DNA of 64,000 nt from Escherichia phage vB_EcoM_PTE-Eco09. A model generated the notes under the pieces. That model ran no database searches and was not told the DNA's origin. It saw only the letters and a program-made list of their open reading frames with translations. Location of the stretch: the sequence record PQ306574.1; one strand, 5' to 3'. This document shows positions 4,256 to 64,000 of this stretch, one piece after another; the stretch's first letter is position 1; each line of letters begins with the position of its first letter. The translations under genes were made by a program, and so were the position numbers.

Positions 4256-4287
4256 GAGTGTCTTTCGTAAGTGAAGGAGTTTATATT

Positions 4288-5489
4288 ATGTATTTTCTGT
4301 CATGTGAGCGAGTGGGTGATAAGATCTACGAGCGTTATATTGATGATGCTGGACAAGAACAAGAGCGTTACGTTGAATATACGCCAACTTTATTTCATCA
4401 TGCCGCGCCTGGTATGGTTACGAATTATAAAGATATCTATGGCAAGCCTTGCATTGCTAAAAAATTCCCATCTATGAACGAGGCCAACAAATGGCGTAAA
4501 AAGATGGGAGAAATGGGGCAGGAGGCACTAGGGATGGATGATTTTATCATCTCCTATCTGTCTGATACGTATAAAGGCGAGATTCGATATGACCGAAATA
4601 AAATCCGTGTAGCATGGGTTGATATCGAGGTCACTGCCCCAGAATTTCCTAAACCAGAAGAAGCGAAATATCCTATCGATGCAATTACGCATTATGATTC
4701 CGTACATGATCGTTTCTTTGTATTTGACTTGAAAGGAAAAAACGGTGAAATCTGGGAAGCAAGCAAGTCTATTCTTCGACCTGATATTGTAGAGCGCGTT
4801 GTTTATAACGTCTATGACACAGAAGATGAATTGCTGTTAGAATACATCCGATTCTTTGAGGAAAACCGACCCGTTGGTTTCACTGGCTGGAACACAGAAA
4901 CATTCGATATTCCATATATCATTAAACGTATCAGTAATAAGTTCGGAAGTAGAACCGCTAACCGTCTAAGCCCGTGCGGTAAGATTAAATCCAGAATCTC
5001 ACAGGATGATTTTGGCAACGAGCGTGAAGCATTTACGATCATGGGGATCGAAAGCCTTGATTATATTGACCTGTACAAGAAATTTAGCTTTACGACTCAA
5101 CCAACATATGCGTTAGATTATGTTGCTGAATATGAGACAGGAATCGGTAAGGTTGATTATGATGGTCCGTTAAAGAAATTGCGTGATGACAACCATCAAC
5201 TTTACATCGATTATAACATCGGCGACGTTGATCGTGTGCTGGCGATTGATAAAAAGCGTGGATTTATCGATCTTGTGTATAGTCTATGTTTCTATGCAAA
5301 GATTAAATTTAACCATGTTTATAACCCGATGAAAGTATGGGATGCTATTATCTTCGGATCTCTGAAAGCTGAGGGTAAAGTAGTACCGGAAAATAAGATA
5401 CAGCCTAAGCAGACTTATCCTGGCGCATTTGTAAAAGAACCTGTGCCGAATGCTTACCGCTGGATGATGAGTTTTGACCTTACTTCCCT
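4288..5489 (+). CDS. 43: DNA polymerase gp43, exon 1 (N-terminal/exonuclease half, ends within the SLYPS motif)
   Basis: MYFLSCERVGDKIYERYID matches the T4 gp43 N-terminus; FDIEV exo motif. The frame hits a stop 7 nt after the proposed 5' splice site. Confidence 0.9.
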
Positions 5490-6602
5490 AAACTGATATG
5501 GGGCTTTCACTGGTGACAGTGATCGAATAACCTGCTTAATTGCTGGGAAATCTCTAAGGAGACAATCAGCAGCAGTTGCATTTTGAGCTAACGTGTCTTA
5601 TAATGTATATAAATATTGATATACATTGGAGGCGCGAGATGAAAGACATTTTAAGAAAGTACGAAATACATAACGAGGAAGCATTAAACGACTACATTAA
5701 ACTGGTGTCTAATCCGTATCAGGGTGAAGAATATTCCGAGGTGCATCATATATGCCCGAAGTCAATGTTCCCTGAATATCTGTTAGATAAATGGAATCTT
5801 GTTAGGCTTAAGTTTGAAGACCACGTAGAGGCGCATCGGTTATTGTGATTAATATTCAATAACGGTGAATGCAAGAGAGCATATGCTTTCATCTCTAGAG
5901 GATCTTATGACGATAAAGTGAAGGCGTTAACCAAAGATGCATTCGCTGGAGACAATAACCCAGCCAAGCGAGAGGAAGTTAGACTGAAAATATCCGAAAA
6001 CAAGACCGGAAAAGCCAGAACCGATATGAGCGGAAAGAAGTATTTCGGGGCTGATGAGGACATTATACGAAAAGGTCTTGATTCTATGGCAGAAAAGCTA
6101 AAGAATACTGTTATCGTTAAGGATAAGGAAGGAAATCGGTTTAGAGTTAGTTGTGATGATCCTAGATATGTTTCCGGTGAGTTAGTATCATTTAATGCTG
6201 GAGAGAAGCGCGAAAATTCAGCGTCTAAACGACCGGAAGTTATGAGTAAAATAATGTCAAAACGTAATGAAACTTATGCTAAATTTGCAAGTTTCACATT
6301 TGATGAAATGGTGAATTTTCTTGTTGAAGCACATAATTCAGGAAAAGAGATCTTTGGTAAGAAGAAACCTTTTGCCAAGAATTATAGCGGATACTGTAAG
6401 AGAACCCCGTTTGATCAAAATGAGCTTAAAGATGCAGTTGTTCAACGACTATCGAAAGGGTAACGAACCGAGTAGAGTAGAATCAAGCGATTCGAAATGG
6501 CAGGATTCTCTATGAGAATGTGATATAGTCTGATCTACATGGTGACATGTAGCAGTTCGCAAGAGAACGGGCGCGGGAGTAGCGAACCGCGCTGAACATA
6601 TG
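5490..6602 (+). mobile_element. putative group I self-splicing intron in gene 43
   Basis: U at 5489 can pair with G5500 (P1: CCCU/GGGG); terminal G at 6602; P10 pairing GAUAU (5495-5499) with exon 2 GUAUC (6603-6607). Core-like elements AAUUGCUGGGAAA, AAUCAGCAG and GAUAUAGUC; GNRA hairpins. Joining the exons restores TSL-YPSIIRQVNISPETI. Confidence 0.65.
5639..6463 (+). pseudogene. intron-encoded HNH homing endonuclease with NUMOD3-like C-terminal region, interrupted by an in-frame TGA (5846-5848)
   Basis: HNH-like motif EVHHICPKS...NLVRL...HVEAH in the first 69 codons; the same frame continues after the TGA into NUMOD3-like NPAKREEVRLKISENKTGK. RBS GGAGG before ATG 5639. Confidence 0.6.
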
Positions 6603-8079
6603 GTATCCATCAATCATCCGTCAGGTTAATATTTCGCCGGAAACAATCGCCGGATCTTTTGATGCTGCACCGATGCACGAGTATATCAATAAAACTGCCC
6701 CGCGTCCGAGTGATGAGTATTCTTGCTCTCCTAACGGATGGATGTATAGAAAAGATATTCACGGTATCGTACCGATTGAGATTAAAAAGGTATTCGATCA
6801 GCGTAAGCAGTACAAAAACATGATGTTGGCATGTGATCGCAATGCTGAACTCTGTAAAGCGATTCTACACGATGAAAATCATGTTTATGGGGGAACCATT
6901 AGCTATAGCGTTGAAGTACGTCACGACTTTGATGAAGCGTTTAAATCGATGCTTTCTGAATTAAGTAAAGATGCCTTAGAGAAATTGCTGGAAGAATGTA
7001 AAGACGAGTCGATCTTGTGCAATACAAACCAGCTTTCTCGAAAAGTTTTGATCAACTCCCTTTATGGTGCGTTGGGGAATCCTAAATTCCGTTTTTATGA
7101 TCTCCGTAACGCTAGTGCGATCACCTTGTTTGGTCAGCTTGCAATTCAGTGGATTGAGCGTAAGATTAACGAATACTTAAACGAGCTTTGCGGAACAACC
7201 GATTTTGCATATGTTCGTTATTGTGATACTGACTCCGTTTATGTGCTGGTTAACAATGTTGTTGATAAGGTTGGCGGGGAAGACCGTTTCGACGATACCG
7301 AAAAACTTGTTGACTTCCTTGATAATTTCGGTAAACATCGAATGGAACCTATTATCGACAAGGGATATCGCGAGTTATGCGAGTACATGAACAACTATGA
7401 GCACTTGATGTTTATGGACCGTGAGGCAATTGCTGGTCCTCCGTTGAAATCTGCGGGTATCGGTGGATTCTGGACTGGCAAAAAGCGTTATGCTCTTAAT
7501 GTTTGGGATATGGAAGGAACGCGCTTTGCTGAACCTAAGCTAAAAATCATGGGCTTGGAAACGCAACGTAGCTCCACCCCTAAAGCATGTCAGAAATCAC
7601 TGAAAGAATGTATTCGCCGTATGTTGCAGGAAGGTGAAGAGTCATTGCAGGAATACTACGGTATTTTTGAGCAAGAATTTAGAAAACTTGATTATCTTGA
7701 GGTTGCTGCGGTATCATCTGCAAACAACCTACAGAAATACAGCGATTCAAACGGGTATCCGATTAAGGGTTGTCCGTATGCGGTTAAGAGTGTATTGTGT
7801 TATAATCGTAATGCTCGAAAATTCGGACTAGATCCAATTCGTGAGGGCGAGAAGGTTATGATTGTACCGCTGAAAGATCGAAATCCGTTTGGAGAAATCT
7901 GTTTTGGTTGGTTGTCCGGTACTCGTATTCCTCCAGAAATTGAATCAGAGGTGTTAAAGTGGTTAGACTGGCCTTTGTTGTTTAATAAGACTTTCGTCAA
8001 ACCACTGGAGAACATTACCACGGCTGCAAAGCTGCAATATGAGAAAGTTGCTTCTCTGACTGACCTGTTTGACATTTAA
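6603..8079 (+). CDS. 43: DNA polymerase gp43, exon 2 (polymerase half)
   Basis: Frame is open from 6583 and encodes YPSIIRQVNISPETIAG upstream of the first Met (6673). Contains YGALG, DTDS motifs; C-terminal SLTDLFDI resembles the clamp-binding tail. Confidence 0.9.
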
Positions 8080-11243: not shown

Positions 11244-11879
11244 ATGATCGCTAATGCTTTACCGCCAAAATGGATCGTAAGTCGCTTTTATACTCTCAAG
11301 GAAGGTAACGCACCTGATGGTCGTCCGATCCGAGATCTGTTTCTGGAGATGACTACAGCCGAAGCACAGTTTTATAATGATCTGACAGACGATAAGCCAT
11401 TTCTCGTAAATTCGGTGGACCTTGATGGCAATGTCACATCAATCATCACACATGGTGGGGGAGTGAAAAATATTACTTCTCTGCGTGATCACGGTTGGGA
11501 AATTGCTTGTGTATTTCCTGCGGATGTACGCGGATTCTTTGATGAGGTATCTGATATTAAAGTAAATGCACTGGAACCATATGACGAGATCCCACCACTG
11601 AAAGAAGAAAAAGAGTTGACACCGGAAGATGTAGATAGTACACTACACCCCGACCTATTTAAGAAGATTAGCGGTTTATGGACTGTTACCCTGTATCCAA
11701 CCGCATTAGGTCTAGAATTGGGTATGCCAACTTATTCTGATATTGATAACTGGAATAAGAGCATTGATAAAGAGGTTACAAGAGAGCGAAATAATGCTAA
11801 AATGCAACTTAAAGAGAAACGCAAAGATCTTGAACGACAACTGAAAGAAACAAAACGTTTGCTTTCTACATTCGCTTGA
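11244..11879 (+). CDS. hypothetical protein
   Basis: 211-aa ORF with RBS; no motif recognised. Confidence 0.5.
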   Translation: MIANALPPKWIVSRFYTLKEGNAPDGRPIRDLFLEMTTAEAQFYNDLTDDKPFLVNSVDLDGNVTSIITHGGGVKNITSLRDHGWEIACVFPADVRGFFDEVSDIKVNALEPYDEIPPLKEEKELTPEDVDSTLHPDLFKKISGLWTVTLYPTALGLELGMPTYSDIDNWNKSIDKEVTRERNNAKMQLKEKRKDLERQLKETKRLLSTFA

Positions 11880-62741: not shown

Positions 62742-63048
62742 ACAAGTTGATAATATCGCACTTCGTGAAGCACTAAAGAAAATGTTTTCGGTCGGTACTC
62801 ACTCTTTTCAGTTTACTAAGAAAGATGGTACTGTCCGTGAGATGATCGCCACGCGAGATCCGGCACTGATGCCGTTTGAAACATACGAAAAGTGGTTAGT
62901 TCCGAATGTTGAAAAACCGCGTAAAGAATCAGAAACATCTTTGCCAGTATATGAAATTGCAGTTGAAGGTTTCCGTAGTTTTGGGCTTGATAGTCTGATT
63001 AATGTAGACGGGCTGACTCCAGCGCAGATCGTCGAAATTTATAAATAA
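62728..63048 (+). CDS. hypothetical protein
   Basis: 106-aa ORF. Confidence 0.45.
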   Translation: MIMTEQVDNIALREALKKMFSVGTHSFQFTKKDGTVREMIATRDPALMPFETYEKWLVPNVEKPRKESETSLPVYEIAVEGFRSFGLDSLINVDGLTPAQIVEIYK

Positions 63049-63089
63049 TTCATCATTAAACTGTATTGATTTGAAGAGGTAATAAAATT

Positions 63090-63413
63090 ATGACCGTTAA
63101 AACTCCTAAAGCACTTGGTGACTATGTGATCATTGAAGCTAAAGCAGAAAGCGCAGGGACAGAAGTAAAAAGCTCTATGGGGATCATTATTGAGCAAAAG
63201 CGCACTATGGGCGAGATTCCGCTGGTAGGTAAGATTATTGATATCGGTGAAACGGTAGATAAAGAATTGCTGGGTAAAACTGTTTTACTGCCACATGGCA
63301 AGATGAATAAAGTTCCTCATCCAGACGTTATTAACGGCGTTAAGAAGGAAGAAGAGATCGACCTGAAATGGACTGTAACACACAAACAGAATATTGTGGT
63401 AGTTTACGGTTAA
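63090..63413 (+). CDS. 31: GroES-like co-chaperonin (gp31-like)
   Basis: 107 aa; GDYVIIEA...GIII...VGKIIDIG...VLLPHGKMNKVPHPDV fits a GroES/gp31-like pattern; position after cd as in T4. Confidence 0.55.
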   Translation: MTVKTPKALGDYVIIEAKAESAGTEVKSSMGIIIEQKRTMGEIPLVGKIIDIGETVDKELLGKTVLLPHGKMNKVPHPDVINGVKKEEEIDLKWTVTHKQNIVVVYG

Positions 63414-63423
63414 TGATTTTAAA

Positions 63424-63449
63424 CGGCGGGAAATAATCCCGCCTATATT
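63424..63449 (+). terminator. intrinsic terminator
   Basis: GGCGGGA-AATAA-TCCCGCC followed by TATATTTT. Confidence 0.55.
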
Positions 63450-63495
63450 TTGGCTATATGATTTTGTAAGTTATTGATTATTAAGGAATTTTATT

Positions 63496-63660
63496 ATGAA
63501 AACTATGAATGTAAACATCCACGAAATCCATACCGAAGTATTCACCGAAGAAGACCAGTTTGGTGTATGGGTAAATCCTCATTCGATTACTATCGATATT
63601 CCTAATGACGATTATGATCCGTTCTCTCTGATTAGCGAGATTAGTTTTAATGACTTCTGA
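63496..63660 (+). CDS. hypothetical small acidic protein
   Basis: 54-aa ORF. Confidence 0.35.
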   Translation: MKTMNVNIHEIHTEVFTEEDQFGVWVNPHSITIDIPNDDYDPFSLISEISFNDF

Positions 63661-64000
63661 AATTGATATCTATGCGGGTGGACCTTATCCATCGGGTGAA
63701 TTGAGTAATTTCAATAAAAGACCATTCCGTCTATTTGGTTGCGATATTAACAGCACAGAAGGATTTTTACAGGGGCTAAGATTTAAGAACCCTCAGAGAC
63801 AAAGAGAAATCTTTTTGATGCACGGTGGCAAAGCAAAAAGAACCGGAAGAACTGAAAAGATTGAGAATCACCTGTTATATTTTCAGGGTCGCCAGATTCA
63901 TCGAATGAGTGAGCATTATTACAGACTGGTACATCTGGCATTTGTTACGATGGCACGGAATAACCCAGAATTTTGTAAAGCATTACTCGCTACCGGAAAT
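63650..64000 (+). CDS. NADAR/YbiA-like domain protein (3' end outside window)
   Basis: GGPYPSGELSNF, STEGFLQGLRF, KAKRTGR, ALLATGN resemble the NADAR pattern; ORF runs off the window end. Confidence 0.45.
   Translation, partial: MTSEIDIYAGGPYPSGELSNFNKRPFRLFGCDINSTEGFLQGLRFKNPQRQREIFLMHGGKAKRTGRTEKIENHLLYFQGRQIHRMSEHYYRLVHLAFVTMARNNPEFCKALLATGN

Follow-up and report, generated by a model that had tools for sequence, protein, structure and literature searches.

The closest described counterpart of the gene analysed here is gene 30.3 of phage T4, whose product is listed among the phage NADARs and hydrolyses guanine-ADP-ribose (G-ADPr) on DNA in vitro, not thymine-ADP-ribose (T-ADPr) (PMC11125620). 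The T4 protein is also active on G-ADPr RNA, a property of all NADAR families, T4's included, which show no activity towards the phosphate-end ADP-ribosylation of RNA (PMC11833690), and it does not act on C-ADPr (PMC12945103). Johannesman et al. (Nat Commun 2025, PMC11825919) renamed gp30.3 AdfN (anti-DarT factor NADAR): T4 without adfN becomes sensitive to DarTG1, and AdfN is both necessary and sufficient against this system. RB69, which has an allele that is 15 residues short and naturally inactive, is rescued when AdfN is supplied ectopically; AdfN is weakened by E36A and K43A, and inactivated by removal of its C-terminal helix (PMC11825919). AdfN does not bind DarT1, is fully functional only during T-even infection and is unable to replace DarG1 in uninfected cells; the T-even panel tried against DarTG1 consisted of T2, T4, T6, RB69 and Bas35-Bas47 (PMC11825919). 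In a transposon screen, adfN was conditionally essential under DarTG1 (bioRxiv 10.1101/2025.11.20.689424). The T4 NADAR construct has been given as 'gp30.3; residues 1-208' (Toxins 2024), as against 152 aa in MT984581.1 (2998-3456).

Two further phage-encoded NADARs, AdfN-Bas32 and AdfN-Bas60 (of T5-like and Vequintavirinae phages), likewise counter DarTG1. They fall into separate NADAR clades, for which the phylogeny suggests independent acquisition, and unlike T4 AdfN they neutralise DarT1 without phage infection (PMC11825919). In other NADARs of known structure, a glutamate (E43 in the P. nicotianae protein, Pn) and an acid on the last strand (Pn E125) hold the distal ribose, and a lysine (Pn K50, E. 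coli C7 K95) coordinates phosphate; DarG1 has Asp as its last-strand acid, whereas phage NADARs have His in that place (PMC11543638). Our literature search found no paper on Krischvirus, or on Krischvirus gp30.3, together with DarTG.

We analysed a window of 64,000 nt from Escherichia phage vB_EcoM_PTE-Eco09 (PQ306574.1). Nucleotide matches to its last 2 kb, with 90-99% identity, were found in 59 phage records (57/59 at 95% or more), all from RB49/Phi1/JSE-like coliphages (genus Krischvirus, family Straboviridae), and by its nucleotide identity (98-99%) the source of the window is a T4-type coliphage of this genus. An ORF that opens with ATG runs for 117 sense codons to the window's end with no stop, and translates as MTSEIDIYAGGPYPSGELSNFNKRPFRLFGCDINSTEGFLQGLRFKNPQRQREIFLMHGGKAKRTGRTEKIENHLLYFQGRQIHRMSEHYYRLVHLAFVTMARNNPEFCKALLATGN. 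Being cut off by the window end, it is missing from the ORF list. The initial annotation had described a NADAR/YbiA-like ORF here from four sequence motifs; all four are present in the translation (Table 1), and the start that it proposed is exactly the start codon. The ORF constitutes the 5' three-quarters of gene 30.3, which occupies the syntenic place, under that name, in Phi1 and RB49. All 59 Krischvirus records match at least 80% of its length, and it is intact in the four that were translated.

In those four phages (RB49, Phi1, KMB43 and UPWr_E1) the full-length protein has 159 aa, so that 42 codons lie past the window end. We found no deposited genome with 100% identity from which to take the missing end, the best being UPWr_E1 at 99.5%, and the C-terminus in PTE-Eco09 is inferred from these relatives. 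RB49, Phi1 and UPWr_E1 have the same last 42 aa, and the continuation expected from them ends in KKLRHSIGGTDPLKTILTESEFCSILNDIRERLTKRGENVNS and a stop codon. Within the window, the allele differs from those of RB49, Phi1 and UPWr_E1 by one or two substitutions (M75L and P82Q, with Q82 also present in UPWr_E1). Annotation of the gene is uneven: in KMB43 (OR525698.1, 7952-8131) only the last 60 codons are annotated though the 159-codon ORF is intact there, and most other Krischvirus records label the product 'hypothetical protein'. In T4 an internal out-of-frame ORF, 30.3', is annotated inside 30.3 (MT984581.1, 3134-3361); no counterpart of at least 30 aa was found on the plus strand among the ORFs that end inside the window. 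Two minus-strand ORFs that overlap the gene (63776-63871 and 63783-63941) had no support and were treated as chance.

Table 1. Coordinates of the features discussed, numbered along the 64,000-nt window.
Feature	Position	Strand	Basis
DNA polymerase gene 43, first part: 412-aa ORF, PolB exonuclease domain	4258-5496	+	
HNH endonuclease ORF between the gene 43 parts	5918-6463		phrog_12434, E=2e-84
Group I intron match between the gene 43 parts, sub-threshold	6292-6552		RF00028, 33 bits vs 50, E=2.6e-6
DNA polymerase gene 43, second part: 468-aa ORF, PolB polymerase domain	6673-8079	+	
211-aa ORF, function unknown	11244-11879	+	Phi1 ORF021, phrog_16187
ModB-like ADP-ribosyltransferase, 167 aa	14452-14955	+	Phi1 modB synteny; phrog_832 'RNA polymerase ADP-ribosylase', E=1e-20
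Terminator-like GC hairpin and T-run, 3' of gene 31	63425-63443	+	Consensus scan, pattern match only
31.-1 (ORF215), 54-aa ORF, function unknown	63496-63660	+	ORF list, Phi1/RB49 annotation; phrog_15277, E=3.7e-42
Gene 30.3 (adfN orthologue, phage NADAR), codons 1-117 of 159	63650-64000	+	PF08010, phrog_652, synteny with Phi1 and RB49
GELSNF, aa 16-21, with L18-S19-N20 as the near-invariant NADAR motif of the N-terminus (cf. GDFSNF of E. coli YbiA)	63695-63712	+	Translation, alignment
STEGFLQGLRF motif, aa 35-45	63752-63784	+	Translation
Glu37 (GAA); T4 AdfN E36, P. nicotianae NADAR E43, E. coli C7 NADAR E88	63758-63760	+	Alignments to T4 and YbiA
Arg44 (AGA), at the conserved phosphate-coordinating Lys position (T4 K43, Pn K50, EcC7 K95)	63779-63781	+	Family alignment
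KAKRTGR motif, aa 61-67	63830-63850	+	Translation
Lys63, in the conserved G59-x-x-A62-K63-x-x-G66 helix	63836-63838	+	Family alignment
ALLATGN motif, aa 111-117	63980-64000	+	Translation

Sequence profiles place the protein firmly among the phage gp30.3 proteins. The Pfam family PF08010 (Phage_30_3, 'Bacteriophage protein GP30.3'; cut-off 36 bits) matched the window fragment with 87.6 bits (E=8.3e-25) and the full-length Phi1 protein with 132.5 bits (E=1e-38), and PHROG 652 (phrog_652) did so with E=6.9e-32 and E=2.5e-45, respectively. Compared with T4 gp30.3, the fragment is 35% identical (BLASTP, E=1e-18) and the full-length protein 38% (E=5e-18). Matches of this strength are well outside the range of chance. 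The family is a large one, since a profile of 12 homologues matched 1665 cluster representatives at E<=1e-3 in a library of 1.8 billion proteins; by tblastn it occurs in 1509 phage records, mostly from T4-type phages infecting Escherichia, Klebsiella, Shigella, Aeromonas, Acinetobacter and Vibrio. Gene identity and membership of the phage NADAR family (PF08010) are direct results of the present analysis. The PF08010 domain also occurs in metagenomic and bacterial proteins, either in tandem or fused to other regions (P0074, P0109, P0086, P0111, P0131 and P0014), with partners that include BspA-type LRR_5 repeats, LGT (prolipoprotein diacylglyceryl transferase), an FtsW/RodA-like region and a D-Ala-D-Ala-ligase-like (Ddl-like) domain. 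As a hint to function these fusions yielded nothing coherent, and some may be gene-calling artefacts.

The wider link to the NADAR superfamily is marginal by simple sequence profiles. An HMM search against NADAR, as the initial annotation had advised, stays below threshold, because the Pfam model PF08719 (DUF1768; gathering score 35.1 bits) scored the fragment at 13.3 bits and the full-length protein at 15.5 bits. Taken alone, such a search would have wrongly refuted the NADAR idea, since the link becomes visible only through PF08010, profile alignment by hhalign or the fold. When a family profile of 65 sequences was aligned by hhalign with the YbiA sequence, the probability was 90.7% (E=1.3e-6, 128 columns), with LSNF paired to FSNF, E37 to the Glu of SEH, position 44 to the Lys of QKF, and ALLATG to LLLATA. 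In PDB, the single gp30.3 sequence matched no NADAR (a match to D-alanyl carrier protein ligase, E=4e-4, was judged spurious), and family profiles retrieved YbiA alone, weakly, with E=0.12 and 0.05. Sequence searches of PDB were therefore not decisive, and we relied on the fold search and on hhalign.

With AlphaFold2 we modelled P0001, a full-length cluster representative that is 99% identical to the window protein (mean pLDDT 94.2, pTM 0.89). In the fold search this model scored 12.1 against E. coli YbiA (2b3w), 12.0 against the P. nicotianae NADAR with ADP-ribose (8bau) and 9.9 against the G. lovleyi DarG1 NADAR (8bat), the next best match reaching 4.2. Foldseek likewise placed YbiA and the P. 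nicotianae NADAR on top, with nothing else below E=1. According to the model, full-length gp30.3 has the NADAR/YbiA fold and matches no other, and superfamily membership, which rests on this predicted fold together with hhalign, is secure at the fold level. The NADAR identity proposed in the initial annotation is accordingly borne out both by the PF08010 match and by the modelled fold.

The residues on which NADAR activity depends could be compared across 162 family sequences aligned to the profile. The N-terminal motif is near-invariant (L18 in 153/162, S19 in 155/162, N20 in 157/162), and the glutamate at position 37, the equivalent of which coordinates the distal ribose (PMC11543638, PMC11825919), occurs in 157/162. 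Lys63 (141/162) lies in a helix with similarly conserved neighbours (A62 in 156/162, G59 in 149/162); going by the description of the PnNADAR-ADPr structure, it would line the pyrophosphate pocket as a candidate equivalent of Pn K75/R79. The near-invariant positions kept in the fragment include L18, S19, N20, F26, E37, Q41, G59, A62, K63, G80, R85 and L112. The last-strand histidine, His122 (KKLRHSIG; 157/162), lies five codons past the window and is present in RB49, Phi1, KMB43 and UPWr_E1; the relatives also keep G125, L134, T135, E138, F139 and the C-terminal helix, which spans residues 136-157 in the P0001 model. The glutamate and a basic residue at position 44 are seen in PTE-Eco09 itself, and the histidine and the helix in its relatives, in which the full ORF sought beyond the window is 159 aa long with H122 and the helix intact.

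The exception to this conservation is position 44, at which the family has Lys in 155/162 sequences, Arg in 5/162 and Thr in 1/162. The Arg carriers are P0001, P0002 (69% identical), the intact member P0144 and two degenerate domains that have lost the Glu as well; in Krischvirus, Arg44 is common to the four translated alleles, and it is shared with the P0001 cluster representative and P0002. A cautionary precedent comes from the DarG1 NADAR of E. coli C7, in which K95R keeps G-ADPr hydrolysis in vitro and loses DarT1 rescue (PMC11543638). We read Arg44 as a tolerated or adaptive variant and not as decay, because it is common to relatives and because no other departure was seen among the conserved positions examined. 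Arg preserves the basic charge, and the substitution may lower efficiency or shift specificity; efficiency of the protein against DarT1 cannot be assumed. It is rather improbable, in our judgement, that the change is adaptive in the sense of retuning the enzyme to another ADP-ribosyl target or DarT variant, or that it leaves the protein ineffective against canonical DarT1. If the latter were true, Krischviruses would be natural DarTG1-sensitive T4-type phages, and in both cases nature would have supplied a means to probe NADAR substrate specificity and the dependence of AdfN on phage context.

Compared with T4 AdfN, then, gp30.3 belongs to the same PF08010/PHROG 652 family at 35-38% identity, is of similar length (159 vs 152 aa) as a bare NADAR core, and keeps LSNF, the glutamate (E37, T4 E36), the last-strand histidine (H122, T4 H113) and the C-terminal helix. 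The two genes share an early-gene neighbourhood between gene 31 and gene 30 (DNA ligase), and differ in the residue at position 44 (Arg44 vs T4 Lys43), in the upstream partner (31.-1 vs 30.4) and in the phage lineage, as Krischvirus lies outside the subfamily Tevenvirinae according to the taxonomy line of the record. DarG1 proteins (DarT1-NADAR/DarTG1, BC4488 family; 8BAT) are more distant: they have 219-234 aa with an N-terminal DNA-binding extension that the 159-aa gp30.3 lacks, starting as it does 17 residues before LSNF, and carry Asp on the last strand in place of His122 (PMC11543638, PMC12945103). They are also encoded next to DarT1, whereas gp30.3 has no DarT neighbour. From the YbiA family (E. 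coli YbiA, 2B3W; P. nicotianae NADAR, 8BAU) gp30.3 differs in having His122 instead of the last-strand Glu and in an extra beta-hairpin, at about aa 75-84, for which hhalign leaves a gap.

The genes around 30.3 are arranged in the order pseT, cd.2, cd, 31.1, 31, ORF215 (31.-1), 30.3 and 30. No DarT lies next to 30.3, whose neighbours are 31.-1 and the DNA ligase gene, and because DarT is absent the locus is no DarTG cassette. The stop end of 31.-1 overlaps the start of 30.3 by 11 nt, and because of this overlap the two genes are probably co-transcribed and translationally coupled. Downstream, 30.3 in Krischvirus adjoins the ligase gene and overlaps it, the T4 genes 30.2 and 30.1 being absent. 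The terminator-like hairpin 3' of gene 31 would mark the upstream boundary of a block formed by 31.-1, 30.3 and 30. A promoter scan of 63000-64000 gave sites no more numerous than in shuffled controls. T4 gp30.4 occupies the same position as 31.-1, yet has no similarity to it, and the idea that 31.-1 is a 30.4 homologue, and thus a possible 'additional phage factor' for AdfN, was dropped.

Concerning the substrate, the chemistry and the role against DarTG1, we infer from the T4 orthologue. It is likely that gp30.3 is an ADP-ribosyl glycohydrolase that erases DarT1-type marks and acts as an adfN orthologue in counter-defence against DarTG1. Were it to behave as its T4 counterpart, it would be produced at an early stage of infection, from a transcript shared with 31.-1 and the DNA ligase gene, and would cut the N-glycosidic bond that joins ADP-ribose to the guanine N2 amino group in DNA, and probably in RNA. 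The ADP-ribose marks set on replicating phage DNA by the DarT1-type toxin of a host DarTG1 would thereby be erased and phage replication could continue, making gp30.3 in effect a phage-carried orphan antitoxin. An anti-DarT role through removal of ADP-ribose had been put forward in the initial annotation, and it draws support from the T4 orthologue, for which both hydrolysis of G-ADPr DNA and DarTG1 resistance are documented (PMC11825919, PMC11125620). Several points nonetheless weigh against this reading: the conserved lysine is Arg44 here, and the corresponding EcC7 exchange cost DarT1 rescue; identity to the T4 protein is only 35-38%; the T4 protein is fully active only in T-even infection, so that transfer to another genus is not guaranteed; and the histidine and C-terminal helix lie outside a window fragment that, in addition, does not reach the Pfam NADAR model.

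The same arginine would mirror a different specificity if gp30.3 were catalytically active as a NADAR but its physiological substrate were not DarT1-modified phage DNA. Candidates would be G-ADPr RNA, a soluble ADPr derivative that serves host immune signalling, or DNA bearing the marks of a different transferase (DarT-like or pierisin-like). We hold this to be unlikely, though not negligible. Activity on G-ADPr RNA is general among NADAR families, including T4's (PMC11833690), a survey of viral NAD-ADPr metabolism proposed soluble ADPr derivatives as the main substrates of phage NADARs (PMC9503650), R44, though rare, recurs in the 69%-identical P0002, and the EcC7 K95R protein is without DarT1 rescue. 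The sole known genetic phenotype in the gp30.3 family is nevertheless anti-DarTG1, the T4 NADAR is inactive on T-ADPr and C-ADPr, and no soluble substrate has been demonstrated for any phage NADAR. Arg44 could also signal a decayed or attenuated allele that fails to protect, through the Lys-to-Arg exchange or a defect beyond the window. Natural inactivation has a precedent in the RB69 allele, the K95R exchange costs EcC7 NADAR its rescue in vivo and the last 42 codons are outside the window, but every Krischvirus record matches at least 80% of the gene's length, the gene is intact wherever it was translated, three relatives share the same C-terminal 42 aa, the other near-invariant positions examined are kept, and the recurrence of R44 in a relative as distant as 69% identity argues for selection over decay; we regard this as very unlikely.

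A role directed at the phage's own transferases, with gp30.3 reversing or tuning the marks of ModB (encoded in the window) and of Alt (encoded elsewhere), is in our view highly improbable. The window does encode a ModB-like ADP-ribosyltransferase, in T4 the alt gene is found a few genes downstream of 30.3, and NADARs and ADP-ribosyltransferases are co-expressed as early genes in T4-like phages (PMC9503650). ModB is however about 49 kb from 30.3, the known NADAR activity concerns nucleobase N-glycosidic ADPr, with none on phosphate-end RNA ADPr (PMC11833690) and none on ADP-ribosylated protein in the literature examined, and the T4 adfN phenotype is confined to the presence of DarTG1. The suggestion that the gene serves ADP-ribose metabolism linked to the phage ADP-ribosyltransferase hence found no support, given this distance and given that published phage NADAR activity concerns G-ADPr DNA and RNA, not protein. 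A further alternative is a YbiA-like N-glycosidase of riboflavin-pathway intermediates with a housekeeping role in metabolism, but the last-strand Glu of the YbiA family is replaced by the phage-type His, no riboflavin genes lie nearby and no phage need for such a role is evident, and the phenotype of the T4 orthologue is specific to defence, leaving next to no probability for this assignment.

The gene itself is already known: the genome records of RB49, Phi1 and JSE carry it under the name 30.3, and experiments in 2024-2025 established the function of the family. Mildly new is only the Lys-to-Arg variant that occurs naturally in the RB49 group, and it offers a cheap experiment on NADAR mechanism. 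The gene can be named a phage NADAR or AdfN-family ADP-ribosylglycohydrolase with a likely counter-defence role against DarTG1, a result of little import beyond annotation, although relevant to choosing or engineering RB49-like phages for therapy against DarTG-carrying E. coli. A practical warning is that the Pfam NADAR model, used alone, misses the whole gp30.3 phage family.

Elsewhere in the window, the ModB-like ORF, which had no match in a Pfam search, is probably the 'phage ADP-ribosyltransferase' mentioned in the initial annotation. A 211-aa ORF occupies the place of T4 61.2 (adfA), between 41 and 61.1; as a candidate AdfA it was rejected, having no similarity to T4 gp61.2, and for T4 gp61.2 against the whole window the best tblastn value was E=2.5. 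Provided that gp30.3 has the AdfN role, it may be the only known anti-DarT1 factor of this phage, at least within these 64 kb. Finally, DNA polymerase gene 43 is split into two parts about 1.2 kb apart (4258-8079 (+) overall), separated by an HNH endonuclease ORF and a sub-threshold group I intron match, whereas in Phi1 it is a single 2679-nt CDS. Because Phi1 is uninterrupted and, of the phage records that match, only 13/72 extend over at least 80% of the stretch, the interruption has the appearance of a mobile, polymorphic insertion of an intron or homing endonuclease.
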